A DNA stretch of 64,000 nt, from positions 1 through 64,000 of the forward strand of contig BTWA01000026.1 in the NCBI GenBank assembly GCA_045863295.1, written 5' to 3'. The translations under genes were made by a program, and so were the position numbers. This DNA is from Candidatus Hydrogenedentota bacterium (lineage in GTDB: Bacteria; Hydrogenedentota; Hydrogenedentia; Hydrogenedentales; SLHB01). Below the pieces are notes generated by a model. That model was given only the letters and a program-made list of their open reading frames with translations, searched no databases and was not told the origin of the DNA. How positions within the stretch are numbered: the first letter of the stretch is position 1; each line of letters starts with the position of its first letter. Positions 6,742 through 27,322 of this stretch are shown here, piece by piece.

Positions 6742-6822
<81 letters not shown>

Positions 6823-6866: not shown

Positions 6867-7141
6867 CTGCACTTGTCGTCCAGTCTGGTGTACTGCAAAC
6901 TGCGTCACGCGCTTTAATCCCTACCAATAGCGTATCGTTTGTGCTGTCTTTTCTGGCACATGGTCGATCACAAGAAGCGCGAAACTTGCTCAAGCATGCA
7001 CGGCAATTGGAGACACACAGTCTATGCGAAGTACGTGTCGTTGTCCTATTTGTCTGAGCCTCTTGTTAGACATAGAACCCGAAGGGTACCAGAAATCGCA
7101 CGTACCCCTGTCTGCATACTAAGAGATAACCTTTCACCGTT

Positions 7142-7237
7142 AGCTTCGTCAAACAAAATGAGCTTGCGGCGCTTCGGCTGGCACAGGGGCAACACCGTCA
7201 CGGCCTCGTGGAAGTCTTCGGTTAGTCTAAAGATGAC
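7142..7237 (-). pseudogene. Decayed third copy of the WD40-cassette N-terminal module
   Basis: Not in the ORF track. Translates VIFRLTEDFHEAVTVLPLCQPKRRKLILFDEA, 16/32 identical to MIFDLARDFRDALATIPRDHPKRRTLELFEEA. GGAGG lies 6 nt upstream of a GTC codon at the start position; similarity is lost after codon 32. Confidence 0.75.
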
Positions 7238-7490
7238 AGCTCACCTCCGCCATTCCGATACGACCTCACGCTCTCAAGAAAAAACTCTTGAACTCCTAGG
7301 TCCGCGGTGAATGTGTCGCGCTTGCGGTTGGGTGTCAGAAGGAATTCGCCGTAGTGTAAGGCCGTCCCGTGGATCAATGCGGCGGGACGCTGCATCTTGT
7401 GCCATAAATATATGTCAATCGACAAGGAACATCGATTCGAAACGGGACTCGCAGGCGTACAACACCGATTTCATTTCCATCACTGGCACC

Positions 7491-10400
7491 TCAGCGACGC
7501 CAAGGTCCTGACGGTGCCAGTTCCAGAAAATGGACTTCCCCCGCCTCGGTGCCTGCGTATATACGCGACCCAAACACCGCGCATGAAGTCATGGGAGTGC
7601 TGTTGACCCACATCGCCAGACATTCTCCGCTTTCCAAATCCCACAACCTGAGCGTACAGTCCTCACTGACGGACACCGCGCGGCGCCCATCAGCGAGGAC
7701 CGCAACCTCCCACACGGCGCCATGGTGTCCGGGAAGCGTTCGCATGCAAACGCCCGTATTCAGATCCCACAGCCTCACCGTCTTGTCTTCGCTTCCTGAA
7801 CATGCGCGGTGCCCATCCCCGTATACGGCAACCGAACGCACCCAAGCTTTGTGGCCCGTCATAGTCAGTAATCGCGTTCCTTTCTCCAGGTCCCAGACAA
7901 TGATTTGCCCATCCTCCCCGGAAGAGACTAGCTGGCGGTCATTATTAAACGCGGCGAGAGCATCTACCAAGCCGGTGTGCCCACTTAGCGTGCGTGACCG
8001 GACCTGGGTCGTTAGATCCCAGACATAAATGGGGCCAACATTCCTACCTGGAATCCTGGAACCAGTAACCACTTGCCGGCCGCCACCAATAACCGCAATC
8101 GCTCCTATGTCGAATCCCTTAATCATTTGCAGGCCGTCGCCGCTGCCCAAATCCCAGAGTTTGACTGAACTAGGCGCAATTGGTCCCGCCGATACCGCGC
8201 GAAGTCCGTCAGGGAGAAGAGCCAACGACCAGATGGAGTGATTTCCGCTTATCGTTTGTCTGCACGCCCCGCTCGATGTATCCCAGAGCTTTAGAGTACC
8301 CTCCACGCTTCCCGAAAGTAAGGTTCCTCCATCGAGTGAGACAGCAAGCGATGTAACTTCCTGAAAGTGCGCTTCGCCTTTGTCCTCACTGGGGACATCC
8401 AAGTCCCACATCTTGATCACGCGATCAGATCCGCTCGAGAGCAGACGACGCCCGTTTCTGAGAGGAGACAAGGCGTATATGCATCCTTGGTGCCGCCCGA
8501 AATCGCGCAGGCACTTCCCATTCTTCAAGTCCCACAACTTGATGATGCCTTCATTTCCCGATCCTGTAACTGCATGTCGATTGTCCGGAAGGAGTGCGAC
8601 AGAAAAAAGTTGGCCACGATGCCCGTCGAGTGTTATCCGCTCCACACCCGCAACCAAGTCCATCACATGCAGGTTTCGTGGCCCGTCGCCTCCGAAGACG
8701 GCCACGCATCCATCGTGTGAGACTGAGACGTAGCGGACTCGGGAGTTAAAGCTCCTATCACAGGAACCTGTCTCAAGGTTCGCGACGAGTATTCCGCGTT
8801 CGTGCACGGAGACGACCCTGCGGCCGCTCATAAACGTGGCCGCTGAATAGACCGCGCCCAACTTCTCGTGGCCGAACGTGCCCAGGCATTCGCCAGTCTG
8901 CACGTCCCACATCTTAAGGGTCTTGTCGCTACTGCCCGACAAGAACCGGCCCGCCGGTAAACTGACCACGGCTGTGACACCACCCTCGTGCCCTTCATAC
9001 GTACGCAGGCACGTACCGGCTCTCAAGTCCCACAGCTTAATGGTCTTGTCCTGGCTGCCGGAAAATGCATGGAGTTCGTCCGGCAGTACCGCGAGGCATT
9101 TTATTTCCCCTTTGTGCCCTTCCATGGTACGCAGACATTCCCCCGTGGTGAGATCCCATACCTTGAGGGCGTAATGCTTCCCGGCTGGGGGGTGTTCGTA
9201 GCCGCTTGCCGAAAGAGCCTTGCGCCCACCCTCGAGAAACGCCACATCATGGACCGACCCAGAATGGCCCTCGAGGGTCATCATGCACGGGTGCGGAATT
9301 GGATCAAGTGGCCGTTGCAGCGACCGCAGCCAGGGTCTCTCAGGGCCATGTTTCGCAAGCCAAGCTTCGACGGAACGCGCCACGGCACCTTGCTGCGCGT
9401 AGGCATAGGCAGTCTGAAGGAAACAAATCTCGGGGCTGCTAACCGAAACTCGCTGCCAGAGGTGCGAGTTCTGAAAGTAGAAACGATACCACTCCTGAAA
9501 CGCAGGGTCTTTCCGTTCGAGTGCTGCCGCCGTTCTCTCGAATTCCGCTTTGACTGCATACGCTGCACGATTGCCGCCGGACTGGATTTGGGCAAAGTGA
9601 TATTCGAAACGGGTCAGCGCAGAGATCGAGCGATCTCGTTGGACCACATCTATGGACTCAGCGATTCCAGAGTCGGCCTCCAGTCTCGGTGGAGCGGGCG
9701 AGAAATGAGCGGATTCGCCGGACTGCCGCGGGCGCATGGATGCAAATGTACCAACTCGCACGCCTCCGATCGGAGGAACCTGCCCCACGGGCCTGCCAAC
9801 AGGCTTCCTCCTGACTTCCCTGGAAACGGGCACTTCCTGAACTTCCCTCATCCACGTGAAACGCCCTTGCATTGCGGCGTGTCTATCCGGAGCAACCGGT
9901 TCCAGATTTTTCTCGGCCGGAACCGGTTCTTCGCCACCTCTGGCGGTCATTTCCACGGCCGCGCAGTAGACATAGCTGGATCGCTTGCCGGTAGCCGCGA
10001 AAACGCTGGCATTCGGGTGTGGCGTGACGTAGCGCAAAGGTACCCGAAACCAGGCAGCGGCTTTCATGGCAGGCTCGATTTTCAAGACCGCCTCGTTCAA
10101 TTCTGAATCCAAGCCGAACCTGCCAATAGAGGGATTAAGTGGCGGCAACTCCGGGTTGCAGGTGGCCATCCATTCTTCATCGTTCCAAGGGGCCGAAGTC
10201 GTAGTTCCATCCGGAAGGATGGTTATCTCACCTGCCGGCTCCCCCTCATAAACACGGGGAGTGCGTTGGCAGTACATTCCTTTGGCATTCCAGAGTCGTA
10301 TCCCTTCCATTCCAGCCGTGCCAATAAGCGAACCATTGGGTGACCATTTGACCTGTAGACCAGAACCTTCGTGAGCTGTCACAAAACCGGCCGGCCGGCC

Positions 10401-11645
10401 ATCAGCCATTTCGAATAGGTCCAGGCGGCCATTGTGCTTTATTACAGCCAGCCTGCACCCATCGGGGGAAAGTGCGGCAGTCACTCTTTGGCCCCGACCC
10501 TCGCTCGCGCAGAAAACGCTCGCCGGAGATAGATCCTGTGCATGCCAGAGTTTGGCAGATCCATTTCCGCCTCCGCTCCAGACAAGAGAGCCGTTGGGTG
10601 AGAAGCCGACTGCGTTTATAGCTGATCCGACATCCACAACAGTCCGTTGAGTGCCTTCCGGAGAGGTAACGCTCAAATATACTGTGTGCGCTTCGCGCTC
10701 GCAGATTTTTTCCCACGCGTCTCCACGCTTATCGAGCACAATCAGCTTGCCGTTATTGCACCCGCAGATGATGCGCGAACCGGTGGGATGACACGCAATG
10801 CTGACCGCAAAGCAATGCGTAAACGAACCGGTGAAACCGTATAGGAATGTATCCGACAGCGGACCTATCGAGACTTGGCTGATCCGGCGCCAATCGTCGA
10901 TGGACCATTCGGTAACCGACGCTCCCGCCGAAAGCAACACGGGAGCATTGGGGCGTAGACATAGGCTTGTACAACTTCCCTTTGCGTCCAGCGTGCGTAA
11001 GCACGCACCGGAGACGACATCGTAGACGCGTATCGTTTCGTCCCCGCATCCGACAGCGCTCGACCGCCCGTCTGGCAGAAAAACTAGGCATTCAGGGCAT
11101 GCATCGCTCAGCACGATGGTCGTGAGCGCGGCGCAATCCGCAACGTCAATTATGCGTACGGTACCTGTTTTAGCCGTCCTGTTCGCGGAACAGACAGCGC
11201 ATCGGGTGCTATCGGGTGAGAAAGTCAGTGCCGTGACATACCCAGACAGACGGAACGTCCCAAGTGCTCCCGTGCCAAGATGCGTTACCGGCGGATACAG
11301 GCTTCGAATCCAGAGAAGCGGATACTCCTCGTGGTGACGGGCACGCCACGCGCGCCAGCTCCCGAGCAATTCCGACAGCCGGTGACCAGACGCCTGCCAA
11401 GGTAAAGGCAGCATGGTTGGCGGCCACCCCCCGTCCGGTTCCCGGTAGAAAAACGCCGCGTCAGGACAGTCGTACCACCAACAGAGGTTCCACATACACT
11501 GAAAAAGCGTCGTCGGGTGCCGCTCAACGAAATGAATATCCCGGCGAATGGCTTCTTCGAAAAGTTCCAGCGCGCCACGCTTGGGGTGATCGCGCGGAAT
11601 CGTAGCGATCGCGTCGGTGTAATCGCGCGCGAGTTCGAAGATCAT
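7491..11645 (-). CDS. WD40-repeat protein, cassette 2 (two helical-module + WD40 blocks)
   Basis: 1384 aa with many GH...WD repeats in the C-terminal half and degenerate repeats in the N-terminal half. First 63 aa are 52/63 identical to the 11825-15115 product. Confidence 0.9.
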   Translation of the reverse strand: MIFELARDYTDAIATIPRDHPKRGALELFEEAIRRDIHFVERHPTTLFQCMWNLCWWYDCPDAAFFYREPDGGWPPTMLPLPWQASGHRLSELLGSWRAWRARHHEEYPLLWIRSLYPPVTHLGTGALGTFRLSGYVTALTFSPDSTRCAVCSANRTAKTGTVRIIDVADCAALTTIVLSDACPECLVFLPDGRSSAVGCGDETIRVYDVVSGACLRTLDAKGSCTSLCLRPNAPVLLSAGASVTEWSIDDWRRISQVSIGPLSDTFLYGFTGSFTHCFAVSIACHPTGSRIICGCNNGKLIVLDKRGDAWEKICEREAHTVYLSVTSPEGTQRTVVDVGSAINAVGFSPNGSLVWSGGGNGSAKLWHAQDLSPASVFCASEGRGQRVTAALSPDGCRLAVIKHNGRLDLFEMADGRPAGFVTAHEGSGLQVKWSPNGSLIGTAGMEGIRLWNAKGMYCQRTPRVYEGEPAGEITILPDGTTTSAPWNDEEWMATCNPELPPLNPSIGRFGLDSELNEAVLKIEPAMKAAAWFRVPLRYVTPHPNASVFAATGKRSSYVYCAAVEMTARGGEEPVPAEKNLEPVAPDRHAAMQGRFTWMREVQEVPVSREVRRKPVGRPVGQVPPIGGVRVGTFASMRPRQSGESAHFSPAPPRLEADSGIAESIDVVQRDRSISALTRFEYHFAQIQSGGNRAAYAVKAEFERTAAALERKDPAFQEWYRFYFQNSHLWQRVSVSSPEICFLQTAYAYAQQGAVARSVEAWLAKHGPERPWLRSLQRPLDPIPHPCMMTLEGHSGSVHDVAFLEGGRKALSASGYEHPPAGKHYALKVWDLTTGECLRTMEGHKGEIKCLAVLPDELHAFSGSQDKTIKLWDLRAGTCLRTYEGHEGGVTAVVSLPAGRFLSGSSDKTLKMWDVQTGECLGTFGHEKLGAVYSAATFMSGRRVVSVHERGILVANLETGSCDRSFNSRVRYVSVSHDGCVAVFGGDGPRNLHVMDLVAGVERITLDGHRGQLFSVALLPDNRHAVTGSGNEGIIKLWDLKNGKCLRDFGRHQGCIYALSPLRNGRRLLSSGSDRVIKMWDLDVPSEDKGEAHFQEVTSLAVSLDGGTLLSGSVEGTLKLWDTSSGACRQTISGNHSIWSLALLPDGLRAVSAGPIAPSSVKLWDLGSGDGLQMIKGFDIGAIAVIGGGRQVVTGSRIPGRNVGPIYVWDLTTQVRSRTLSGHTGLVDALAAFNNDRQLVSSGEDGQIIVWDLEKGTRLLTMTGHKAWVRSVAVYGDGHRACSGSEDKTVRLWDLNTGVCMRTLPGHHGAVWEVAVLADGRRAVSVSEDCTLRLWDLESGECLAMWVNSTPMTSCAVFGSRIYAGTEAGEVHFLELAPSGPWRR

Positions 11646-11824
11646 GGCAGTTCAATGCATTTTGAGAGAGAAGATGTATGAATTGAGTCTCTCGGCGTCA
11701 TAGCGATCTTCCGGGTTGCTGCACCGTGCATAGCCAGATAACTTTCGCGAGACACAAAGTGTGCATCAGCATATCCGAACAACTTGAGATCTGTCACGCC
11801 CCAGTTGACGGCAGACAGATCAAC

Positions 11825-14800
11825 CTACTTCTCACCTCCGTCATGCCCTTTGGGTCCCTCCAAGCGAAACAGGAGCAAGTGCTCCGCAGAAGAACCGGCC
11901 CACGTCCAGCGAGCCGACGAGACGGTCACATGTTGCAACGAAGCTGGAAACCATGCGCAATCGAGTAGAGATTCTGCGCAAAGCACGGCAGTCGTATATC
12001 CTTGTGTAAACGTTAACCAGCGATATCCTGCCGCGGCGTGGGACACTGATGTCGTATCTCTCACATTCTCGATTCTACGTATACACTCGCCCGATTTGGC
12101 ATCCCAAAAATGAATATCAAACCAGCGTCCTGTCCCCGTCCTCCTGTGAGAAGCAGAAATGACGCGCTGGTCGTCTATCATGAAAGCTACATCTAGCACG
12201 TGGCTTCTGTGCCCTCGCAAGACCATCAATTCCATTCCGGTGTCTAAATTCCAAACTCTTGCAGTCTCATCCATTGACCCTGATACAACATGATTACCAC
12301 TGTGCGAAAATGCGGTCGAGGTGACATCCGAATCATGACCGCGCAGTACGACAAGTTCTCGACCGGAATCCAAGTCCCAGATTCGAACGGTACCGTCACG
12401 CGATGCCGAGCCAATTCGGCGCGTATCCGGCGAGAGTGCAATACTATGTACCCACTTGGTGTGCCCACAAAGAACCGCGAGGTCATCCAGTAAGTAGCCA
12501 TCCGAAACATGAATATTATGGGTGGGCGAATCATACGCGATTATGCGTGAATTTGGGGAGAATGCAACACTATTCGGCGGGCTCGGATCTCCGGTTTCCA
12601 ACGTGTTCAATGCTCTATCTGAGTTTGCATCCCAAATCTTGATAGTCCCACCATATGAACTTGATGCAATAAACTTTCCGTCCGGGGAGAAGGCAACATA
12701 CTTTATGGCGTATTGATGCCCCCTGAGTGTCTGTAGCAATACCCCCGTGTCTCTATCCCAGAGTATGATGTTGTTGTCGGCTGCGCCAGAGGCGATACGT
12801 CGCCCATCTGGCGAGAATGCGGCCGGGCTTGATCCTTGGTTACCGCAAACGGTCCTTAGCTCAATCTTGTTCTGAACGTCCCATAGGTGGACGTAATTGT
12901 AGTCACCCGAGACGATGTAGTTGCCATCCGGTGAAAACGCCACGTGCGTGACGAGCCATTCGTTCGCTTGCAGTGTATAGATTCTGGCTCCCGAGCGTAC
13001 ATCCCACACCTGGATAGAGCCATCGAATAAGCCGACGGCTATGCACTTTCCATCAGGCGAAAAGGCCACGTCGGTATACTTGTTCGGCCCGCGAAACACG
13101 CGAAGTTCGTTTTTCGAGTCGACGTCCCACAGGCGGACCGTATTGTCATACGATGCAGAGGCTACGCATTGTCCATTCGGAGAAAACGCGACGCTGGTCA
13201 CAAAGTCCTCATGGCCGCGCAGAACGCCCGTTTGCATACCAGTTCGTATGTCCCAAATCCGTACAGTCTTATCGCCACAGGAAACGATCCGATCACCTTC
13301 CGGAGAGAAACTAACCTGATTAACTTGACTTTCGTGGCCGCGGAGCGCGAGTACCTCCCTCTCCGTTCGCAAGTCATATAGTAGTACTGTTTTGTCTTCA
13401 GATGCGGTCAGGATGCGGAGAGCGTCTGGCGAATACACGAAGGGGCCACACCCGTGTTCAGACCGCACGGTCCTTAGGTTGATTCCCGTCTCAGAATCCC
13501 ACGCTTGCCATGCCGAATTATTTGCCGTAATAATCCGAAATCCGTCGGGTGAGAACTCAAGCTTCTCTGCCGAACTGCTTGGTAGTTTAGTCAGGGTCTC
13601 ACCGCTGGCGATGTCCGTAACTAAGGCCCCATCTCTAGAACAGGATACGACTCGCTGTCCGTTAGGGGAGAAAGCGACGTTTGCAACGGGAGATTCGTGG
13701 GCTTTTACGACGCGAGTTAGCGTTCCCGTCTGTGCATTCCACAGGCACATTGTGTTGTCTCTAGAACCAGAGGCCACGCAGTCGCCTTCCGATGAAAATG
13801 CGATGCTTTTTATGTCAGATCGGTGTTCATTAAGCTCGTCCATTGTGTATAAGACTTGTGTGTCCCACAATATAACAACGCCGTTAGAAGACCCTGAAGC
13901 GATTTGCTTCCCATCAGGGGAAAATGCAGCAGTTTCGACATAATCTGTGTGGCCGCAGAGCAAACCCAACTCGGTGCCAGTATCGGAATCCCAAAGCCGA
14001 AGCGCTTTCATACTACCGGAGGTAGAGGCGCCCCGGTGCGAGCCGAGCGCCAAGGCTAATGGGAGATCCGTCTTAGGAAATCTGAACAACTCTATGTCGG
14101 TGTCGGCGCCTAGATCCCAAAACCGCACAGTACCATCGCCCAGCACGAATACGATACGGAGCGCGTCCGATGTGAACTCCAGTGATATATCTTTCGCGAT
14201 ATCGCCGAAATCTGAGCACGACCTCCCCAAGATGAGTGACCGTTCCCCGTTCCGTGAATCCCACAGCTTTATTTCAGAGCCTCCCATCGACGCGACACTA
14301 TTGCCATAAGGAGAAAACGCCACGCGCTTCACTTCTCCGTTATGATGGTGCAAGACTCGCATCTCTGACCCTGATTCCGCACCCAAGATATGCACTGTGC
14401 CCTCGTCTGTGCCGAATACGACTCGCCCCCCATCGGGTGAGAAGGTTACATTCGACGATGCGAATATGTGTTGCTTAGTAAACAAGGGGATCCCCCCAGC
14501 GACATCCCACACATTCACGGTGCCAAATGTCGAGCGTGAAACGATGCGCCTGCCATCAGGTGAAAATGAGATGCTTTCAAACTCCTCTTCTTCACGACTA
14601 CGCAACACATTCAACTCGGCACACGTGACCGCATCCCAAATGCGAATTGTCATATCTGTAGAGCCGGAGGCTAGCAGTCGTCCGTCCGCTGAATACGCCA
14701 CGCTCAAAACTCTAGACAGCGATTCGTGACCGCACAATATGCCCCTAAGGGAAGAGCCCAAATGCAGTTTCTGTGGCCGCAAAGTGCGAAGCCAATAGAA

Positions 14801-15115
14801 TTTCGGAGTCAAATCCTCCTTTCTGCGGTGCCACAATTCCATAAGTGCATGCAACTTCTGGCCGGAGTGGTTCCAGTGGCGTTGTTCTGTGTCCGGATTC
14901 TTCTCCGGTACGTTGTAGTGATTCTCCGCCTCGGGGCAGTCATACCACCAACAGAGGTTCCACATGCATTGGAAAAGCGTGGTGGGGTGGCAGTCGATGA
15001 AGCGGATGTCGCGGCGTATGGCTTCTTCGAACAGTTCAAGCGTGCGGCGCTTGGGGTGATCGCGCGGGATCGTAGCGAGGGCGTCGCGAAAATCGCGCGC
15101 GAGATCAAAGATCAT
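11825..15115 (-). CDS. WD40-repeat protein, cassette 1
   Basis: 1096 aa with about 20 'GH...V..VAFSPDG..IASGS.D.TVR.WD' repeats. ATG overlaps the upstream NACHT stop (ATGA). Confidence 0.92.
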   Translation of the reverse strand: MIFDLARDFRDALATIPRDHPKRRTLELFEEAIRRDIRFIDCHPTTLFQCMWNLCWWYDCPEAENHYNVPEKNPDTEQRHWNHSGQKLHALMELWHRRKEDLTPKFYWLRTLRPQKLHLGSSLRGILCGHESLSRVLSVAYSADGRLLASGSTDMTIRIWDAVTCAELNVLRSREEEEFESISFSPDGRRIVSRSTFGTVNVWDVAGGIPLFTKQHIFASSNVTFSPDGGRVVFGTDEGTVHILGAESGSEMRVLHHHNGEVKRVAFSPYGNSVASMGGSEIKLWDSRNGERSLILGRSCSDFGDIAKDISLEFTSDALRIVFVLGDGTVRFWDLGADTDIELFRFPKTDLPLALALGSHRGASTSGSMKALRLWDSDTGTELGLLCGHTDYVETAAFSPDGKQIASGSSNGVVILWDTQVLYTMDELNEHRSDIKSIAFSSEGDCVASGSRDNTMCLWNAQTGTLTRVVKAHESPVANVAFSPNGQRVVSCSRDGALVTDIASGETLTKLPSSSAEKLEFSPDGFRIITANNSAWQAWDSETGINLRTVRSEHGCGPFVYSPDALRILTASEDKTVLLYDLRTEREVLALRGHESQVNQVSFSPEGDRIVSCGDKTVRIWDIRTGMQTGVLRGHEDFVTSVAFSPNGQCVASASYDNTVRLWDVDSKNELRVFRGPNKYTDVAFSPDGKCIAVGLFDGSIQVWDVRSGARIYTLQANEWLVTHVAFSPDGNYIVSGDYNYVHLWDVQNKIELRTVCGNQGSSPAAFSPDGRRIASGAADNNIILWDRDTGVLLQTLRGHQYAIKYVAFSPDGKFIASSSYGGTIKIWDANSDRALNTLETGDPSPPNSVAFSPNSRIIAYDSPTHNIHVSDGYLLDDLAVLCGHTKWVHSIALSPDTRRIGSASRDGTVRIWDLDSGRELVVLRGHDSDVTSTAFSHSGNHVVSGSMDETARVWNLDTGMELMVLRGHRSHVLDVAFMIDDQRVISASHRRTGTGRWFDIHFWDAKSGECIRRIENVRDTTSVSHAAAGYRWLTFTQGYTTAVLCAESLLDCAWFPASLQHVTVSSARWTWAGSSAEHLLLFRLEGPKGHDGGEK

Positions 15116-17637
15116 GTATTGGCTCCAACGCTCGCCGACGGTGGTTCATCCGAACTAAGTTCGACAAAGTTCGGATCCGCTTCCGCTTTGGCCTCAAGGA
15201 ACTGCCAATCCAAGAGCAGTTCCGCTACTGCATCCCAATAAGGCGAGTTTGCGTCGTCTTTGCCGCCAATCTTCGCTGCCTCGAGTCGGTGGTACGGAAG
15301 TTCGACCACTTTTCGGACGTTGGCCGGGCGCGGGGTAGGCGGGAGACGTTTCGCCCGGGCGCGTTGGGCATCAAGGGATTCCGCCCAGAAGTCGAGTCCA
15401 GCAAAGTAATCCCCAAGCCGTACATGGGCTGCCAGCAAGGCGGCCTCGTCGGAACCAAAGTAGCGCGCCGCGACGGCTTCGCCCACTTGGCGATGATAGA
15501 AGTTCATGACGACCGTTCCGTCCGCGCGCCGCTGCACCATGTACGGCCGCAGATCGGCGAAAAGCCGTGACCAGATCACAACCGGCAGTTGCTTGATGCG
15601 GTTTTCAGGCTTCTTCTCGCGTTCCGTCGGGGATTGATCACAAAACCAATTCATTACAGAATCATCTTGAGAAAGGATCTCCACCAGTTCGTCTTCCGTC
15701 AGGCCGTTCTTGCTCGCGGCGATGTTACCCAGCGCGCGTTCCACCAACAGCCTTCCATGATGCCGCGGGTCTTCGATCCGGTGAAGCATGTCAACCAGAA
15801 TACCCTCGACGTTCCCCTCCAATCCGGGAACCGTGTCCGATCCGCAGGGCAGACCACTCCAGGATCGCCAGCTCTTGGCCTCCTCGAAGGCTACCTTCAG
15901 GTAAAGGGGCCTGCCATCGACACCAAACTTCTGGAGTATGTCCGTGCGCTGGGCCGCTTGCAGCGTTCGGCCTTCATCCTGCAGCCAGGCATCCAGCAAT
16001 CGCGCCCCATCTTCCCGCGCGAGGCGCCCCACTTCCAAAAGCGATTCAGGCCATATTCGCCGGGCGACATCGAAGGGACCGTAGATCGTGGCCCTGTTGT
16101 CCACCGCTGTCGACGTCTCTCCTTCCAGCACCGAGAGCACGAGCTTAACGCCGGAAGCGAGTTCCCGGGGAAGCCAGTAGAGCATCCGCGCGTTGTCGGT
16201 CGGGTTCAGTTGGTCCAATGCGTCCAGAAAGACAACGGCTGGAGCAGTGGCTGACTGTGTCTCGCCCGGTTGCTCGGAACCGGCCAGGCGCTCCCGGAAT
16301 GCCTTGACGAGGTCGTTCATCTCTGTGGGGGGAGTCTCTATCTCAAGCTGCTCGCACAGACTGCGCAGTAGCGACCTCAAATCGGCAGACCCGGGCGTGG
16401 CCCCGATAAACCGCATGACTGCCTGCTCAGGATTGGTCTTCGTCAGCCATGCCCGCGCCATCAAAGCGGTCTTACCCGAACCGGAGACGCCATGAACCAC
16501 CAGCGGTTTCCGGTCGTCGCGGTCGTTCAAATAGCGTTCGATACGGGCGAGTTCATCGTCCCGTCCTATAAAGTGCAGGCTGCGCTCCTGGCCGAACTCT
16601 TGGTGCGACTCCTTTTCCCGCTCCAACTCGGCCAAGTTCTTATAGGCATCAAGTTCGGAATCGATAATCGCCTTGAGGTCCGCCTCGACGCGATTGCACA
16701 AGGCTGTCAGGTCCGGCTCTTCCTCGATCGTCAGCTTCGGTCGCGGATCCTGGTTGCGGAACGCGACGCGGTCCCACGCTACGGAGTATTCAAAAGCGTT
16801 GTGAACCGGCAACCGCTTCTTCAATTCGGCGCTGAGTTCGTCAAGGTCCGCCTTGTCCATACCCCCATCGACGTAACCGCGCGCCGCACCATCCGCGGGT
16901 GGCTTGTCAATCGTTCGGAAATAGGCATAGACATGCCTGTCCGCATCGAGCGATTCGTGCAAAGCCCCGTGATCGATTTCCTGATGGGTGGCAGACTTCT
17001 CAAACATTTCGTGCATGGGGGTGCCCCGGTCAACTCCAAGTGTGTCCAGAGCCGTGAGCAGCAGTCGGCGCATCTCCGCCTCGATTCGGTGCCAATCCGC
17101 GGATTCATCCTTGCCAATCTGGATCTTGTCATCATCACTGACACCGTCCGGGTAATCGATCGTGCGCGGTTGCAGCACGTATTCGTGTGGCACTGCGTTC
17201 AAGTCCTTCCGGTACCACCCGATGCGTTGTACTGCTCTTCCTGGAATCCAACTCGGCACGTCGCTGTCCGTGGAGATCAGCGCGCGATCCGGCTCCGGAA
17301 CCGCGGCCAGAATGTCCTCGAACTCTTTTGCGGGCACGCGCCAAGGTAAAGGCCGCCAACCGTACCGCTCACCGAGCAGCACGATGAAATTCGGCTTGGG
17401 AGACAACTCCTGGCATCGCTCAAGTTCCTGAATGCAGATGTTCATCGTCTGCTGATCCAGTGACGCCTCGCTGCTGACGCCCCATCGGAGGTCGATGGCT
17501 TGAAAACGGGCGCCCCGCTGCTGGCAGTAGGTGCGCAACGCGGGAAATACTTTTTCCTGCAATGCATTCCGTTCGGCAATCAGGTCACTGAATGTCGAAC
17601 TTACAAAAACCCGGAAAGTCAGGTCCTTCCTTCCCAC
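15112..17637 (-). CDS. DUF4062-NACHT (STAND) protein without C-terminal repeats
   Basis: DUF4062 motifs 'FRVFVSSTFSD...ER', 'IDLRWGV', 'LLGERYGW'. Walker A GVSGSGKT, Walker B VVFLDALDQL, winged-helix 'GLTEDELVEIL...FYHRQ'. Ends 'LLLDWQFLEAKAEA' plus a short tail. GTG start after AAGGGGGT. Confidence 0.9.
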   Translation of the reverse strand: MGRKDLTFRVFVSSTFSDLIAERNALQEKVFPALRTYCQQRGARFQAIDLRWGVSSEASLDQQTMNICIQELERCQELSPKPNFIVLLGERYGWRPLPWRVPAKEFEDILAAVPEPDRALISTDSDVPSWIPGRAVQRIGWYRKDLNAVPHEYVLQPRTIDYPDGVSDDDKIQIGKDESADWHRIEAEMRRLLLTALDTLGVDRGTPMHEMFEKSATHQEIDHGALHESLDADRHVYAYFRTIDKPPADGAARGYVDGGMDKADLDELSAELKKRLPVHNAFEYSVAWDRVAFRNQDPRPKLTIEEEPDLTALCNRVEADLKAIIDSELDAYKNLAELEREKESHQEFGQERSLHFIGRDDELARIERYLNDRDDRKPLVVHGVSGSGKTALMARAWLTKTNPEQAVMRFIGATPGSADLRSLLRSLCEQLEIETPPTEMNDLVKAFRERLAGSEQPGETQSATAPAVVFLDALDQLNPTDNARMLYWLPRELASGVKLVLSVLEGETSTAVDNRATIYGPFDVARRIWPESLLEVGRLAREDGARLLDAWLQDEGRTLQAAQRTDILQKFGVDGRPLYLKVAFEEAKSWRSWSGLPCGSDTVPGLEGNVEGILVDMLHRIEDPRHHGRLLVERALGNIAASKNGLTEDELVEILSQDDSVMNWFCDQSPTEREKKPENRIKQLPVVIWSRLFADLRPYMVQRRADGTVVMNFYHRQVGEAVAARYFGSDEAALLAAHVRLGDYFAGLDFWAESLDAQRARAKRLPPTPRPANVRKVVELPYHRLEAAKIGGKDDANSPYWDAVAELLLDWQFLEAKAEADPNFVELSSDEPPSASVGANT

Positions 17638-17720: not shown

Positions 17721-18731
17721 CTAAATGCCGTCACCCGGCAGAGCCTGAGACTCAAACCCCACCCCCAGATTAAAGTTGGTTCCAGTCGTGCCCGCACGGA
17801 TCAGTGGAGTGATACCGACGTTGTCTTCCCAGAAATCCTGGGCAACGGAAGTGTCATAGAAGCCGCCGAACGTGAGCACGAAGGCATCGGCTTGGAGGAG
17901 GACTTTCAGCGACGGTTTGTACGCGGCTTCAATGGGCGCGTGTCCCTGGGCGGCGGAATCGACCTCGTTGTACTGGCCTTTGACATCGATGGACAACATG
18001 TCGGTCAAGTCCGCGGGGAAGTGAGCAGGTTGCAGGGGCGGATACCAGTCAAAGTTGAAGCCGTTGGCGACGACCGCGGCGTACTCCATGTCGCCGGTGT
18101 CGCCGGCGCCTCCGCTGAGGAGTGGGACATCGTCCAAGTAGTTCGATGCGATCTTGTACAGATTGAGATCGCCGGTCGTGTTGTCGATTGCGCCGTCCAG
18201 AGCAACTGACATTGAGCCTTCGCCGGCGATTGACTTCGTCGCCCAGTCATACGTGAATGATATGTTGAGGGTCCAGGCGCCGTAGGTGCTGCCGGTGCCC
18301 GAGGAAACGTCGCCCGACAATTTGACTTCGATTCCATCGCTCATCGCATTGATCGAATCCACCGCGCTATGCCCGAGCACGGCGCCCGCCATAAATGGTT
18401 GCGGATACCAAGTTGACCCCCAGCCATCCGGGTCTACACCGGGATGCGGACGAAACGCCACCGCACCGTTGGATACGATTAGCGTCCCAAAATGACGAGG
18501 CGTTCCGTTCTCGACGAGCTTAAGACGGTACTCCAGTCCCGCCCCCGTTTGAAGCGAACTGACCACATAACCGTCTGGTGTGACCGTGCAATCGGTAAAG
18601 CATGCCACCCCGGCCAAGAGGATCAGCGTAAATACCGCAGCAAAAACGCCTCGTTGAAGCCTCCGGAAATCATGGTGGTCTCTGCATGCAATCTGGCCAA
18701 AATCAGATTCTGACTGCTTTCCCATGCCCAA
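17721..18731 (-). CDS. Hypothetical exported or membrane-anchored beta-rich protein
   Basis: 336 aa with a hydrophobic segment near the N-terminus and an acidic Gly/Asp/Thr-rich body. RBS AAGGGGG. No family recognised. Confidence 0.7.
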   Translation of the reverse strand: MGMGKQSESDFGQIACRDHHDFRRLQRGVFAAVFTLILLAGVACFTDCTVTPDGYVVSSLQTGAGLEYRLKLVENGTPRHFGTLIVSNGAVAFRPHPGVDPDGWGSTWYPQPFMAGAVLGHSAVDSINAMSDGIEVKLSGDVSSGTGSTYGAWTLNISFTYDWATKSIAGEGSMSVALDGAIDNTTGDLNLYKIASNYLDDVPLLSGGAGDTGDMEYAAVVANGFNFDWYPPLQPAHFPADLTDMLSIDVKGQYNEVDSAAQGHAPIEAAYKPSLKVLLQADAFVLTFGGFYDTSVAQDFWEDNVGITPLIRAGTTGTNFNLGVGFESQALPGDGI

Positions 18732-19053: not shown

Positions 19054-21738
19054 TTACAATCCCCAATACGACAGCTCTGGGCTGAAAGAGGGGCGGCGCC
19101 AGTCTTCCCAGCGTTCGACAATTTGCTGGAACTTTGGGTCGTCGCGGACGCCGGGGAAATGAGATGCGGTGCGGAGCACGGTGCCGAGAATCTCTTCTTG
19201 GCGTGCGGAGTCTGATATGATGCGCGCTTCGACCAGGAGTGCGCGGACGAGTTCTTTGGGATGAAACCGCTCCATGAGCGATTGAGCAATCCGCAGATTG
19301 CGGAGGGCGTCCCTCTCCGTGTGCTGACACTTGGCGCGCTGCAAGTACGAAGGGGCCTGAATTACACCAGCCTCCTCCCGGTACGCAATGTTCTCATCCA
19401 GAATCTGTATAGCCCGTGGCACATCGCCGCGGCGGCGTAGCACCTCGGCCAGTGAGTCCCCAATTCGAGCAATAACGCGCTTCTCGGAAAGACCACTCGT
19501 TTCCAAGGTTAGTGCCTCGCAAAGGACTTCCTCTGCGCGTGAGTTCTCCTCTTGTCCTAGGAGGTAAAGCCCGAAGTACAAGCGCTCGATTGCAGTGAAA
19601 CCGCGTTGTAGAGGCGCCAATTGCAGCGCTTCGAACTGTTCATGCGCGCGTTTGACGATTGGATGCGGAACCAGTCCAATTGCACATCCGGCCTTTTGAA
19701 GGTCGGTGTAGTGCGGGCCAGCCGCAGTAGGCCAATCGAAGAGTCGTATCCCCCATGCGATCGCCTCCGTATCCCCCGCTTCCGCGCCAATCCAGCACTG
19801 CAATCGATCAAACTCCTCGCGGGCGCGCGGACGTTGTAGACTACGCCGGTCGATGGAAGCGCGAATGCCATCAAGGGCGGGTACAAATCTTCCCTTCTGG
19901 TAGTTGTCCGACAATTGGATGAGGTCAAGGACAGGCACTGATGTTTCGTCTGTGTGTGCCGCGACCCAACGACCCAGTTGTGCCACAATCGGAAGTTGGT
20001 GCCACGAATCGTATCTGGTCTCGTTGGTAATGAGGTACAGTACACGTTCAAGATTGCTGATTGCGGCATCGAAATCGACTCCACGCGCAACAACATCGTA
20101 TTCAGCAACGCCGACAACGACACAGGGCGGCCCGTCGGCCGGAGCGATGTCCCATCGATCTACACGCAGGTCAAGCACGCCCCCATGCGTGCCGATGCGC
20201 GCGCGCTCTGGCGGGCGCTTCGCGTGTGCGCAGGCCGCGAAGACGCCAGGGGCGAGCGATTCGGTTCGCTTCGGGTCCGCCGCGATCGCCATGGGCCAAA
20301 CGCGCTCCCGTAGCGCCCAACGTACAACGGTTTCAATGCGTTCATCCGACCCCGTAGAGCCATACGGGCAATGTGCGAGCATCCAAGCGACGGCTTGTTG
20401 TCGGCAGTACGGCACAAACCGCGGCCCGAATGGGTCAGTGGATGAGAGCGCCAGAAGGACGCCCCCCGCTTCGATAGACGCAACGGAACGGTCCGCGGTG
20501 TTGGACGCAGTCCACCATGCGGTCTCGAGTTCACCTATTTCCAGGTGAATTTCCGCGCGATAGCCGGAGACTTGTACATTCTTGCGTTCCAAATACCTGC
20601 CTTCAATATTGAAAAGCGCTTGATTTCGATGCATATTCGCAACCTCCGATTCGCGGCGCTTCGTGTAAATCCGGTACAGCGCGTGGTGTGCCCGGGCGAG
20701 CACACTCCTTCGAAGTTGAAAACTCATGCTGTGCGCCGCCCCATCGGTCTGTGACCGTGTCTGTTCGATGCGAATGCATTCCTGCAGCGAACTTTCACTG
20801 TTTTTGCCGCCTTGGTTGCGGCCGTGTTCGAGTAGCGCCAGCGCCAGGAAGTGTGCCGTATTAAACGTGGCGTACCGCGCGTCCATCGCACGGGCCAGAC
20901 GAATAGCGCGATCGTAGTCGCCGGCTTCGCAGAAGAGCTGGACGAGTGCCAACGCGCCGCGTTCTGGTACGCCATCGCCGCTGGCGATGCGGAAGAACTC
21001 ATCGAATAGAACGTTGTCCGGTACGGCAGCAGCGCTCGTTGCCAGGTCGTGCACTACAGGGCACAACCAGCCATTTGGCGCATACTGGGATTCGAGGAGT
21101 GCGAACACACGTGGAAGAACCGGGGCGGCTAGCGCCCGCCAATGCGCGGCGGCACTGGGATCCCGCTCGATTAGCGTTGCAATCCCGGAGCACCATACAG
21201 GCACTGCAATTGCTTCGGGCGCAACCGAAATCATGTTCTTGAAATGCGCTTCGGAAAGACAGAAATCACGCAGCTCTACAAACCTCTGCGCGGCGGCGAG
21301 AAACCGGGGAGCATATGACCACGCAAGTGGCGCGGCGGACGACGGCAGCGCCAACGCGGCCGTTGCCATATAGTGTGCGCCTGCTCGCTGTACGGCCTGG
21401 TCGATGGCACACTGGGACCCAGAAATGCGTTGCTTCCAAGTCCAGGTCATTTCGACGAAGGCGGCCGAGGACTCAGCAACGTCTCTGGACAACAAATCGT
21501 TTATCCCTTTCTCGACCTCATGTTGCTCCCTCTTTGATCCTGTTCCGCACGCGATGGCCGCTAGCACAAGTTCGTTGCGTTTGATTGGGCCCGGCAACAC
21601 ACTCAGCATGCCAACCAGTTGCCTGACGCGCGACGCATGCCCCGGGCCGCTGGCTAGGCGTTCGATCTCCGAACACACATCCTTCTCGTCGGGGTGCGCA
21701 GTCAACGCCGATGCCCAATAGGCTTGGAGCGGGGTCAT
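19054..21738 (-). CDS. Hypothetical helical-repeat (TPR-like) protein, last gene of the Pup-like operon
   Basis: 894 aa with an ATGA overlap to the pafA-like gene. TPR-like segments 'LVQLFCEAGDYDRAIRLA' and 'LAEVLRRRGDVPRAIQILDE'. Confidence 0.75.
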   Translation of the reverse strand: MTPLQAYWASALTAHPDEKDVCSEIERLASGPGHASRVRQLVGMLSVLPGPIKRNELVLAAIACGTGSKREQHEVEKGINDLLSRDVAESSAAFVEMTWTWKQRISGSQCAIDQAVQRAGAHYMATAALALPSSAAPLAWSYAPRFLAAAQRFVELRDFCLSEAHFKNMISVAPEAIAVPVWCSGIATLIERDPSAAAHWRALAAPVLPRVFALLESQYAPNGWLCPVVHDLATSAAAVPDNVLFDEFFRIASGDGVPERGALALVQLFCEAGDYDRAIRLARAMDARYATFNTAHFLALALLEHGRNQGGKNSESSLQECIRIEQTRSQTDGAAHSMSFQLRRSVLARAHHALYRIYTKRRESEVANMHRNQALFNIEGRYLERKNVQVSGYRAEIHLEIGELETAWWTASNTADRSVASIEAGGVLLALSSTDPFGPRFVPYCRQQAVAWMLAHCPYGSTGSDERIETVVRWALRERVWPMAIAADPKRTESLAPGVFAACAHAKRPPERARIGTHGGVLDLRVDRWDIAPADGPPCVVVGVAEYDVVARGVDFDAAISNLERVLYLITNETRYDSWHQLPIVAQLGRWVAAHTDETSVPVLDLIQLSDNYQKGRFVPALDGIRASIDRRSLQRPRAREEFDRLQCWIGAEAGDTEAIAWGIRLFDWPTAAGPHYTDLQKAGCAIGLVPHPIVKRAHEQFEALQLAPLQRGFTAIERLYFGLYLLGQEENSRAEEVLCEALTLETSGLSEKRVIARIGDSLAEVLRRRGDVPRAIQILDENIAYREEAGVIQAPSYLQRAKCQHTERDALRNLRIAQSLMERFHPKELVRALLVEARIISDSARQEEILGTVLRTASHFPGVRDDPKFQQIVERWEDWRRPSFSPELSYWGL

Positions 21739-23453: not shown

Positions 23454-23660
23454 TCACTGGCCCGATTGCTGCGTTTTTGAGAGTTCCTGGAACCGCTGCG
23501 GATCACAGTTCAACATGCGGTCAACGATAGCGTTGGTCCGCTCGTGGATCCGGCCGAGCCTCGGCGATTCCTTGTCGATTAGATTCTCGATCGGTGGCGC
23601 CGTATCCGTTACGACCGACTCGTGCTCTCCAACCAATGGTTCCACAGAGGTCTTTGTCAT
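23454..23660 (-). CDS. Pup/UBact-like small protein modifier ending -SGQ
   Basis: 68 aa with a polar/acidic N-half, helical-looking 'IVDRMLNCDPQRFQELSK' and C-terminus QQSGQ. Lies between two PafA/Dop-family genes, with an AAGGA RBS and an ATGA overlap with the dop-like stop. Confidence 0.8.
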   Translation of the reverse strand: MTKTSVEPLVGEHESVVTDTAPPIENLIDKESPRLGRIHERTNAIVDRMLNCDPQRFQELSKTQQSGQ

Positions 23661-25273: not shown

Positions 25274-25286
25274 AGGACCGCACAGG

Positions 25287-25302
25287 AGCAATGACCATGC
25301 CA
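25287..25302 (-). promoter_or_regulatory. sigma-54 (-24/-12) promoter of the Pup-like operon
   Basis: Minus strand reads TGGCATGGTCATTGCT, matching TGGCAY-N5-TTGCW with exact GG-N10-GC spacing; adjacent to a divergent sigma-54 activator gene. Confidence 0.8.
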
Positions 25303-25452
25303 TACGAAGTTTCCGATGTAAGTCGTTTCGCCACGGAGGATCGGTGCAGCGTTGGGCTGCAACCTTGCAGTTGGCGCGCCCATCCCAATCGTTGCATTGC
25401 AGCAAACCTTTCCGTACCATGCACTGGGGTGGGCGATTGGGGGATTACAGCG

Positions 25453-27108: not shown

Positions 27109-27322
27109 GGATCACCAAAGAATGAACTGGCACCCACGTTCCGCAACGCAGGAGCCAACCAAACCTTTGGCCCAATACAACACCAACCAAGCCCAAGACT
27201 TGTGGGAAGACAACGCGATTATCTCCCCCCTCATCCGCCAAGACAATCCGCGCACCGAGTTCCGGTTCAAGTTCAAGCGGCAATCGAAACCACAAACCGG
27301 GGACAGGCCGTAGGAGACCTGC

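Follow-up and report, generated by a model that had tools for sequence, protein, structure and literature searches.

A bacterial NLR-type receptor apparently divided between one DUF4062-NACHT core gene and separate WD40 sensor genes with a common head

The NLR/STAND receptors of animals, plants, fungi and bacteria are, to our knowledge, described as single chains joining sensor, switch and effector. The locus reported here raises the question whether such a chain can be divided among genes, so that one core serves several sensors. In a window of 64,000 nt (the whole stretch of DNA analysed), a gene for a DUF4062-NACHT protein is followed by genes for WD40 proteins that begin with a common helical head (Table 1). 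We consider it likely that their products make up an NLR assembled in trans, in which sensor subunits are interchangeable on a single NADase/NTPase core.

Table 1. Coordinates of the core gene, the sensor genes and their parts in the window
Feature	Position	Strand	Description or basis
Core gene, P0001	15112..17637	-	841 aa, GTG start; DUF4062/TIR-like N-terminus, NACHT-type STAND NTPase, winged helix, first half of helical arm, short tail
DUF4062 core stretch, residues 9-95; putative NADase effector	17353..17613	-	Pfam, alignment
DLRWGV in DUF4062 stretch	17476..17493	-	
NTPase domain, residues 347-510	16108..16599	-	Pfam, motifs
Walker A, G.SGSGKT	16468..16491	-	
Walker B region, FLDALDQ	16210..16230	-	
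Winged helix, residues 608-730	15448..15816	-	Pfam HTH_NWD1
C-terminal helices, residues 755-822; predicted docking surface for sensor heads	15172..15375	-	Complex-prediction interface
FLEAKAEA in C-terminal helices	15178..15201	-	
21-aa tail DPNF...ANT after last helix	15115..15177	-	Translation
ATGA, core stop overlapping sensor 1 start	15112..15115	-	GGAG 7 nt upstream of ATG
Sensor 1, P0002	11825..15115	-	1096 aa; docking head, WD40 beta-propellers, C-terminal cap motif
Sensor 1 head, residues 1-120	14756..15115	-	Helical; second half of helical arm
Sensor 1 C-terminal cap, AWFP...WAG...LLLFRLEG	11855..11956	-	
Gap, sensor 1 to sensor 2	11646..11824	-	179 nt
Sensor 2, P0003	7491..11645	-	1384 aa, composite
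Sensor 2 head	11286..11645	-	
Sensor 2, cap-like end motif of degenerate propeller, residues 532-565	9951..10052	-	
Dead third head (VIFRLTEDFHEAV...)	7049..7240	-	E 3.3e-5

The core, the sensors and their junction

The N-terminal stretch of P0001 matches DUF4062 in Pfam with 43.6 bits against a cut-off of 24.7 (E 3.4e-11), and the core-family profile matches the solved TIR-like domain of TEP1 (11gz_A) with E 8.3e-30. The glutamate E57 in DLRWGVxxE, a candidate for the catalytic residue, is invariant in 56/56 sequences and aligned with a TEP1 glutamate; position 90 (GERYGW) varies within the family. The accessible part of a preprint (bioRxiv 10.64898/2026.05.01.722283) gives NADase activity for DUF4062, and the accessible text on this TIR-like NADase family has it depleting NAD+ in phage defence and in TEP1. 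In the NTPase region the Pfam models AAA_16, nSTAND1 and NPHP3_N are all above their cut-offs, while the NACHT model itself reaches 25.0 bits against 26.7 (E 2e-5). Walker A (GxxxxGK[ST]) is present as GVSGSGKT at residues 383-390. The Walker B region FLDALDQL reads D-A-L-D-Q, with Q where the D[GAS]hDE signature given in the preprint of Kibby et al. has its final acidic residue; D472, D475 and Q476 are conserved across the core family. The winged helix after the NTPase is recognised by HTH_NWD1 with 29.0 bits against a cut-off of 27. PADLOC profiles (2023 library) assign 0 families to P0001 and 0 to the fused paralogue P0004, and give only a repeat-model match for P0002, so the immune role of the core rests on domain analogy.

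Conservation within the core family is highest in the C-terminal helices, with invariant or nearly invariant columns at 753-822 of the core alignment. Translation of P0001 ends with ...LLLDWQFLEAKAEA plus the 21 aa DPNFVELSSDEPPSASVGANT. This tail is a diverged version of an acidic tail, DPNF[RQ]EQES.EP, which is conserved and common among split cores; in other split cores the tail is just 5 aa long. The chain thus stops 21 aa past the arm helix and carries no repeat sensor, the WD40 repeats being encoded in separate genes. The open reading frames and translations bear out what the first-pass annotation had read here, namely that the core ends in this way and that the next gene starts with MIFDLARDF through an ATGA overlap. 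A stop codon lies in the P0002 frame 33 nt upstream of its ATG, so there is no hidden fused frame. Two contigs from two studies other than that of the window span the junction without a single difference or indel (X2 record 14, 14843-15401; X4 record 22, 14955-15252); the stretch 15110-15180, for which read support had been asked, is thereby crossed by two independent contigs, and no fused NACHT-WD40 ORF is found.

The second WD40 gene begins at the same residue, with MIFELARDY. Its product is ordered as head, degenerate propeller with cap-like motif, second helical linker and canonical WD40 propellers, where the linker resembles the head only in its ...PWLRSLRP end. The cap motif occurs in split and fused members alike and probably closes the last propeller. 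The bodies of P0002 and P0003 are about 20-30% identical, in agreement with the earlier view that the propellers are very different; the AlphaFold model of P0002 is mediocre (mean pLDDT 69.5). Sensor 2 lies behind the gap without overlap, so its co-expression with the core is not assured; a weak sigma-70-like match is found inside the gap at 11797-11768, in a promoter scan that performs no better than shuffles. The dead third head has GTC in place of the start, shares 14/32 residues with the P0002 head in a 64-aa open frame, and breaks off after about 32 head residues.

Fused relatives, repeated split/fused change and selection on the head

The break was proposed to fall inside the helical domain after the winged helix, by comparison with the unsplit P0004, which indeed carries the continuous segment VLGDTMFAAAKSTGGAVYDLLTDY. 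P0004 is a distant paralogue with 27% identity in the NACHT part, and the point is better made by much closer fused relatives. These fused bacterial proteins align with the whole core (P0123, E 3e-198) and read FLEAKAEAG/LVFDL at the junction (slash), although some junctions are re-fused in appearance, e.g. AEAQP/TMIFDL. In the AlphaFold model of the fused P0134 (pLDDT 89.8), the junction falls in a loop of 3 residues that connects helix 420-429 with helix 433-447, in a helical run 340-534, which places the break where it had been proposed. The top full-length Foldseek matches of P0134 are the Apaf-1 entries 3shf and 3sfz (E about 1e-40, about 1267 columns), with low TM-scores of 0.26 owing to domain arrangement, and the first propeller is 8-bladed in type, as in Apaf-1. 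Such a full-length match holds for P0134, and for the window proteins only as the sum of two chains.

Among 126 core-family proteins, 102 stop 5-36 aa past FLEAK; a further 10 are fused, and 14 fall in neither group. Split members include proteins that sources assign to Stieleria varia and Maioricimonas rarisocia, where the contigs measure 9.7 and 7.7 Mb. The split is found at the identical residue in 3/36 other genomes of the family and in 27 loci of other species, mostly Planctomycetota, with ATGA overlap at 11/11 core-to-sensor junctions in loci. For the heads, each of the 50 cassettes examined opens with a start codon of its own, placed precisely at residue 1 of the head (44 ATG, 5 GTG, 1 TTG), mostly at full length, and 28 of the 50 starts overlap the upstream stop as ATGA. 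When the best 150 of 1271 head-carrying cluster representatives are considered, the head lies at residue <=3 in 135, while the remainder have it at 4-30 (2), 31-200 (7) or beyond 200 (6), and clearly fused NOD-head-WD40 proteins number 6; the head is thus far from being confined to fused proteins, and both forms occur elsewhere. In the NACHT tree (118 rows) there are at least 6 changes between split and fused, 5 of them forced by starred branches; for instance, the fused P0246 is nested among the split P0244, P0247 and P0249 (96-99, starred).

Whether other genomes vary in their number of sensor cassettes had also been asked, and 2-7 heads are found against 0-1 core. The ratios of cores to heads are 1:2 in G000 (plus one dead head), 1:7 in G061, 1:5 in G062, 1:3 in G063, 1:2 in G065 and 0:6 in G064. 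No core was found in the G064 assembly as available, and one of its six heads sits within a fused TIR-NB-ARC protein. Short or broken sensors are present in some arrays, which may reflect decay or sequencing error. This conserved layout of a core followed by sensors suggests that one core shares several interchangeable sensors.

The heads of P0002 and P0003 share 52/63 aa and 152/185 nt (14931-15115 vs 11461-11645), which reproduces the first-pass counts, and 24 of the 33 nucleotide differences are at third codon positions, as its mention of many synonymous changes implied. With dS 0.96, dN 0.089 and omega (dN/dS) 0.09, synonymous sites are near saturation, so conservation acts on the protein and not on the DNA as such; ahead of the two heads, the 200-nt flanks match at 47/200 positions and are unrelated. 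Within arrays, conservation of the head far exceeds that of the body in 20/20 sensor pairs, at median identities of 87% and 32%. Comparison of the sequences therefore puts the head under strong purifying selection at the protein level, as had been suggested.

A docking surface for this head is predicted on the core. The complex prediction for the P0001 core with the head of P0002, the one head folded with it, scores 0.85 against 0.00 for the best of 3 controls, although the halves of a split gene could score high via likeness to fused or solved Apaf-1-like structures. The score mark is reached by 116/157 solved complexes and 2/215 mismatched pairs, counts that hold only roughly with the unpaired alignments used here. 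Contacts agree between runs to at least 91%, with partner pLDDT of at least 61, and the interface joins core residues 755-822 to head residues 1-51 and 91-107, overlapping the most conserved columns of both alignments. The head is thus predicted to pack against the last helices of the core, restoring the arm of the fused protein. The earlier proposal that the helical domain is rebuilt in trans gains support from this predicted binding, together with the repeated changes between split and fused forms.

A proposed receptor assembled in trans and its alternatives

We propose that the chain of an NLR-type (STAND) receptor is cut in two within the helical arm that joins the winged helix to the WD40 propellers. 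From the first gene would come the putative NADase effector (TIR-like DUF4062) together with the NACHT NTPase, the winged helix and the initial arm helices, and each downstream gene would supply the remaining arm helices, as a head of about 120 aa, with its own distinct beta-propellers. One core molecule would hold one sensor at a time, hence each cell would contain a mixed population of receptors with differing specificities. A ligand bound to the propellers would free the NTPase for oligomerisation, by analogy with Apaf-1, and the TIR-like domains, once clustered, would hydrolyse NAD+, so that the infected cell is stopped or killed. The split would allow sensors to duplicate, diversify, move or disappear with no further copy of the dangerous core being made. 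The fuller picture is that of a combinatorial bacterial innate receptor, in which up to seven co-encoded sensors draw on one NADase-NTPase core, with the common head completing the helical domain of the core, specificities added, lost or exchanged as whole genes, and small indels at the ATGA junction toggling lineages between one chain and several. If the unbound core is active, this design would serve as a guard too, firing on sensor destruction. We regard this fuller picture as evenly balanced between right and wrong.

It is also conceivable, though unlikely, that the docked sensors act like a guard or antitoxin and mainly restrain a constitutively active core, the trigger being loss, degradation or displacement of the sensor in infection and not a propeller ligand. 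The docking prediction serves this reading equally. Apaf-1 lacking its WD40 repeats is deregulated, and by analogy a core without a repeat domain is expected to be so; the tight ATGA coupling and the surplus of sensor genes over cores would ensure an excess of inhibitor. Restraint needs no set of 2-7 very different propellers, however, and diversifying sensors suit ligand recognition better, while the interconversion of fused and split relatives argues for one mechanism in both forms.

A non-immune role, in which the split protein is a STAND switch for a cellular process with WD40 subunits as scaffolds, appears rather improbable. It would agree with the missing PADLOC match and with the surroundings of the locus: no known defence gene is directly adjacent, and next to it lie a lipoprotein-like ORF, genes of the Pup-ligase family and a sigma-54 activator. 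It accords poorly with an effector from a family which, in the accessible text noted above, depletes NAD+ in phage defence and TEP1, and with a patchy distribution (3/36 family genomes), copy-number variation and fast-diverging sensors, all typical of conflict systems.

The first-pass annotation offered as its alternative that the heads are recombination anchors for cassette swapping. In such a scheme they would provide homology for bringing silent sensors into an expression site, as in orphan toxin or pilin cassettes; as the main role this is disfavoured and has little chance of being right, recombination being possible as a side effect. Stretches of exact nucleotide identity shared by heads of an array (median 27.5 nt, up to 68 nt) would suit it, as would the dead or truncated heads at 7049-7240 of the window, at 2850-2987 of locus L008 and also in L018, and two near-identical junctions in L010 whose likeness extends to their upstream sequence. 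The core of a split locus, however, has no sensor of its own to replace, the 50 cassettes all start at head residue 1, and the window heads combine dS 0.96 and omega 0.09 with unrelated upstream DNA. Lastly, the split might be put down to a recent frameshift that made a pseudogene of a normally fused gene, or to faulty assembly of such a gene, and the existence of fused relatives might point that way; this is refuted by the identical junction in independent contigs, the split in 27 loci and 102/126 family proteins, and the purifying selection on the head.

Relation to known systems

The eukaryotic NACHT proteins of the TEP1/NWD1 type and the fused bacterial DUF4062/TeTIR-NACHT-WD40 proteins agree with the present system in their domain families and in the order of these (TIR-like DUF4062, NACHT, NWD1-type winged helix, arm, propellers). 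The difference is that here the chain is cut in the helical arm and the WD40 part comes from at least two separate genes, a split of which the accessible parts of two 2026 preprints make no mention. Apaf-1 is alike in its NOD, winged helix, helical domain 2 and two propellers, and the activation logic proposed above is borrowed from it; however, it is one chain, belongs to the NB-ARC and not the NACHT clade, has a CARD effector instead of a NADase, and has a single sensor. With bNACHT and Avs proteins the system would share the STAND NTPase, N-terminal effector, C-terminal repeat sensor and presumed abortive-infection output, but its core has no PADLOC family match.

In NAIP-NLRC4 and the plant sensor-helper NLR networks several sensors feed one executor. 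Each partner there is a complete NLR with NOD, whereas the sensors here lack an NTPase and, in our proposal, supply the missing part of a domain that belongs to the core. Type I restriction HsdS variants and the orphan cassettes of polymorphic toxins likewise combine one catalytic core with tandem exchangeable specificity modules, having a conserved junction and a variable body. Their proteins are unrelated to those here, and the toxin cassettes recombine into the main gene, a mode disfavoured here by the dS and omega data. Swarozyc has in common the DUF4062 TIR-like NADase effector family; according to the accessible text on it, it is without NACHT and WD40 and senses the phage portal via an auxiliary domain, so on that text an identity is rejected, the order here being DUF4062-NACHT-winged helix against DUF4062 plus a portal-binding auxiliary domain without NTPase.

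If the proposed assembly is true, a form of receptor that is natural and widespread would show that the link between sensor and switch can be a non-covalent, exchangeable interface, and the sensor a separate subunit encoded in arrays (hundreds of protein clusters). The locus would then be a simple system for studying how repeats keep a NOD inactive, in what way a single executor can serve many specificities, and by what means a repertoire grows without more toxic effector. It also bears on annotation, where the core is at present named 'DUF4062 domain-containing protein' and the sensors 'WD40 repeat protein', and defence finders leave DUF4062 cores and WD40 sensors unlinked.

The core gene and its tandem sensor genes

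The locus is composed of three co-oriented genes on the minus strand of the window, one encoding the core (P0001) and two encoding sensors (P0002 and P0003), each sensor having a helical head of about 120 aa at its N-terminus followed by WD40 propellers. In the NTPase of the core, AAA_16, nSTAND1 and NPHP3_N are detected above their cut-offs and NACHT slightly below its own, with the Walker A motif GVSGSGKT at residues 383-390. The winged helix is a Pfam match at residues 608-730, beyond which lie about 90 helical residues, the last of them being LLLDWQFLEAKAEA, and then a tail of 21 aa. The core stop and the ATG of P0002 overlap as ATGA, with GGAG 7 nt upstream of the ATG, and the P0002 frame is closed by a stop 33 nt upstream. 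The split of core and sensor is real; contigs of two other studies cross the junction in agreement with this assembly, with 0 differences and 0 indels. On the whole, the genome (G000, 96% complete) has one core of the P0001 kind and two intact heads. The array seems to be cut off at a dead third head, beside a possible integration site near the tRNA-Met gene. Scans for promoters, terminators and sigma-54 sites give matches no better than shuffles.

Features of the split locus and of the genes around it, in window coordinates
Feature	Position	Strand	Description
tRNA-Met gene	6742-6818	+	
Dead third head	7049-7240	-	about 230 nt from the tRNA-Met gene
Sensor 2, P0003	7491-11645	-	1384 aa; N-terminus MIFELARDY; 179-nt gap before the gene
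Sensor 1, P0002	11825-15115	-	1096 aa; N-terminus MIFDLARDF
Aromatic/cysteine-rich motif of the P0002 head	14936-14989	-	head residues 43-60
Core, P0001	15112-17637	-	841 aa; DUF4062, STAND NTPase, NWD1-type winged helix
Lipoprotein-like ORF	17721-18731	-	336 aa; directly upstream of P0001
Pup-ligase-family gene	21735-23423		between the two NLR genes
Pup-ligase-family gene	23657-25420		between the two NLR genes
sigma-54 promoter match	25287-25302	-	one mismatch; faces the Pup-ligase genes
RtcR/PspF-like sigma-54 activator	25291-27108		PADLOC RtcR_PspF2, E 1e-81
Lipoprotein-like fragment	27068-27310	+	directly upstream of P0004
P0004	27323-31633	+	second DUF4062-NACHT protein, one chain
ORF after P0004	31659-32780		373 aa; no family match; hydrophobic N-terminal stretch

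The system is found in 3 of the 36 other genomes of the same family (G013, G016 and G035) and in 0 of 24 genomes from other families of the order. In all three, the core ends with FLEAKAEADPN and a tail, the following gene overlaps the core stop as ATGA and begins MIFELA, and more sensors follow in tandem, with a 49-aa remnant besides in G035. The head profile also picks up 27 loci from other species; by title most of these are Planctomycetota, and some are 'Hydrogenedentota' and 'Nitrospiraceae' MAGs. Head starts were compared at 50 places in these loci and in the window, leaving aside L035, which overlaps L018. The start codon is ATG in 44, GTG in 5 and TTG in 1. An ATGA overlap with the preceding stop occurs at 28 of the starts, a gap of 4-244 nt comes before 18, and for the last 4 no upstream ORF is visible. 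The ATGA overlap is present at each of the 11 core-to-sensor junctions. Since ATGA is inherent to a Met-Ile start (ATGATC), the conserved feature is an upstream frame running exactly to the head start, and the overlap reflects the end of that frame, being no separate motif. Shine-Dalgarno-like motifs are present upstream of 31 of the 50 heads, a count without control to which no weight is given.

The ratio of cores to heads, counted over whole genomes, varies, being 1:2 in G000 (plus the dead one), 1:7 in G061, 1:5 in G062, 1:3 in G063, 1:2 in G065 and 0:6 in G064. The G061 heads form a single array on one contig, one of the 7 copies having a stop, and one of the 6 heads in G064 lies inside a fused TIR-NB-ARC protein of 1452 aa. 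Sensors that are short or broken, as well as remnants of heads, are seen in long arrays (L018/L035, one contig; L008 2850-2987) and may be due to birth-and-death turnover or to indel errors of assembly. In the sensors of the window, a tandem-repeat search finds no high-identity WD40 repeat arrays, and therefore repeat-driven hypervariation is not evident there; tandem repeats of 126 nt with about 80% identity are found in G035. In addition, P0003 resembles two sensors joined, with a degenerate propeller ending in a cap-like motif (residues 532-565), then a different helical linker and two canonical WD40 propellers. A second docking head embedded in P0003 was considered and rejected, as the only part of its second half that fits the head profile is the PWLRSLRP end (hhalign probability 5%).

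Split and fused forms in other genomes

A search with the head module shows that split and fused forms both occur, with 2-7 heads in each of the six genomes counted. The head profile matches 1271 cluster representatives at E <= 1e-3, 404 of them at E <= 1e-30. In the best 150 of the 1271, the head begins at residue 3 or before in 135 (118 of which start with MIF), at residues 4-30 in 2, whose starts are probably miscalled, at residues 31-200 in 7, and beyond residue 200 in 6, which are fused NOD-head-WD40 proteins. Six of the 7 start with a Met 45-85 aa upstream, including the FLEAK helix, and may represent other split points or miscalled starts. In the fused P0123, the first 792 residues match P0001 with E 3e-198.

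The core side is assessed in a set of 126 proteins, consisting of P0001, 119 other listed matches and 6 fused proteins added to them. Of these, 102 stop 5-36 aa past FLEAK, 10 continue into the head on one polypeptide and 14 have some other build. Among the split cores are proteins assigned by their sources to Stieleria varia and to Maioricimonas rarisocia, whose contigs are 9.7 and 7.7 Mb long. Their tails fall into two classes, either 5 aa (AEAQP and the stop) or about 24 aa with the acidic motif DPNF[RQ]EQES.EP. The acidic tail after the docking helix is conserved in many split cores as DPNF[RQ]EQES.EP....EAKP, and this conservation of sequence suggests a role, for example as a linker or a pseudo-ligand. 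The fused junctions read FLEAKAEAG/LVFDL in seven proteins (the slash marking the boundary), and the three others, AEAQP/TMIFDL, TEARQ/DMIFEL and AET/GMVFDL, look like re-fused split genes.

A quick maximum-likelihood tree was built on the NTPase-to-arm region with 118 rows, leaving out rows shorter than 700 aa (except the fused P0134) or with fewer than 300 aligned residues; P0004 serves as the outgroup and the root is insecure. The tree requires a minimum of 6 switches between the split and the fused state, 5 of them forced by starred branches, and the fused P0246 is nested in a split clade (support 96-99, starred). Repeated interconversion of the two forms is thus shown at the level of these sequences, in a direction that the insecure root does not fix.

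Fused DUF4062-NACHT-WD40 proteins, Apaf-1, bNACHT/Avs and networks in which several sensors serve one executor are already known. A NOD-sensor cut conserved across many genomes, together with tandem sensor genes sharing a docking head, appears to be new relative to them, in that our full-text search of the literature, whose supplements may list such operons, returned no description of a NOD/sensor split with tandem head-sharing sensor genes.

Head conservation and predicted docking

The first-pass annotation held that the head is kept under protein-level selection as an interface rebuilding the helical domain in trans. Its identity figures for the heads of P0002 and P0003, 52/63 aa and 152/185 nt, are reproduced exactly, and the selection is borne out by an omega of 0.09 (dN 0.089 at dS 0.96), 24 of the 33 differences being at third codon positions. 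The 200-nt stretches preceding these heads show no relationship to each other. Within arrays, the head is far better kept than the body in 20 of 20 sensor pairs, with medians of 87% over 63 aa vs 32%. Runs of exact nucleotide identity shared by heads are 27.5 nt long at the median (23 nt for the pair of the window), and the propellers are only 20-30% identical, so that their synonymous sites are saturated.

As to the position of the break, the fused P0134 was folded from an alignment that combined fused proteins with cores and sensors (pLDDT 89.8, pTM 0.67). The model has a helical run at 340-534 after the winged helix, then two propellers, and the junction (432/433) falls in a 3-residue loop that separates helix 420-429 from helix 433-447, in accordance with the earlier placing of the break inside the post-winged-helix helical domain. 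The best full-length structural match is full-length Apaf-1, and for the first propeller the matches are 8-bladed proteins (Z 46-50). VIA-align gives propeller matches only (model range 551-890), and does not independently assign the arm to Apaf-1 HD2. P0002 alone gives a mediocre AlphaFold model (pLDDT 69.5), with the head at 58-73 vs 83-95 in the fused P0134, a comparison given no weight as the alignments differ.

Complex prediction was performed with the core from residue 590 to 841 (56 aligned rows) and residues 1-130 of the P0002 head (45 rows), both on our own alignments. The score is 0.85, vs 0.00 for the best of 3 controls; it is a model score and no measurement of binding, and since both chains are halves of a protein that relatives make as one chain and that is similar to solved proteins of the Apaf-1 type, the pass may reflect this likeness. 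That score was reached by 116 of 157 solved complexes and by 2 of 215 mismatched pairs, a calibration that is only approximate for our own alignments. Contact agreement between runs is at least 91%, with partner pLDDT at least 61. The predicted interface joins core residues 755-822, including FLEAKAEA, with head residues 1-51 and 91-107, and coincides with the most conserved columns of both families; at its 27 positions in head 1-51, P0003 has 23 residues identical to P0002 and 4 conservative changes. The in-trans reading, and with it a split NLR with docking heads, is therefore supported by conservation, selection, the fusion-fission pattern and the controlled complex prediction, as far as sequence and models go.

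Some further features of the sensors are noted. The C-terminal cap AWFP...WAG..NHL.L..LEG is common to sensors of split and fused forms, and presumably closes the last propeller. In the head alignment, the aromatic/cysteine-rich motif HPTTLFQCMWNxCWWYDCP is strikingly conserved, with H43, C50, C55 and C60 regularly spaced, and could be a metal site or a hydrophobic core. By sequence, the head has no significant match in the PDB, the best being the ASC CARD (E 0.052). The head also occurs behind other NODs (TIR with NB-ARC, TIR with NPHP3_N; P0294, P0316, P0333 and L037 659-5017), some of these proteins having no WD40 Pfam domain listed, and it may be an adaptor that is portable among cores and propellers of different kinds.

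Proposed mechanism and neighbouring genes

According to two preprints, DUF4062 is a TIR-like NADase; that of Swarozyc depletes NAD+ in abortive infection, and that of TEP1 is active and occupies the place of the Apaf-1 CARD (bioRxiv 10.64898/2026.05.01.722283, 10.64898/2026.09.21.753143). At its N-terminus the core family gives a match to the solved TEP1 domain (E 8.3e-30), and E57 is invariant. The families involved suggest that the locus encodes a receptor assembled in trans. Translational coupling would deliver sensors beside the nascent core, one head would be bound per core, a ligand of the propeller would free the NTPase for oligomerisation, and the clustered putative NADase domains would then act. 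A guard-like variant, in which loss of the sensor triggers the core, fits the sequence equally, and we consider it improbable. The use of the heads as anchors for recombination cassettes, the alternative raised at first pass, is disfavoured on three grounds: the synonymous sites have reached saturation, each cassette carries a start codon of its own, and no sensor resides in the core.

Besides the split locus, P0004 shares only 27% identity with P0001 over the NTPase, and its C-terminal beta-propeller is not canonical WD40. The fragment upstream of it resembles the lipoprotein-like ORF (E 1.9e-5), a clear homologue of which lies directly upstream of a fused TIR-NB-ARC-head-propeller gene in G064 (L037 5033-5980, minus strand), where it comes after a sigma-54 activator. 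The order of sigma-54 activator, lipoprotein-like ORF and NLR is recurrent. Matches such as the sigma-54 promoter match of the table are not enriched in the window. Several genes lie between P0001 and P0004 (19054-27108), including that of an 894-aa TPR-like protein, a homologue of which adjoins the NLR locus in L025 (E 1e-32).
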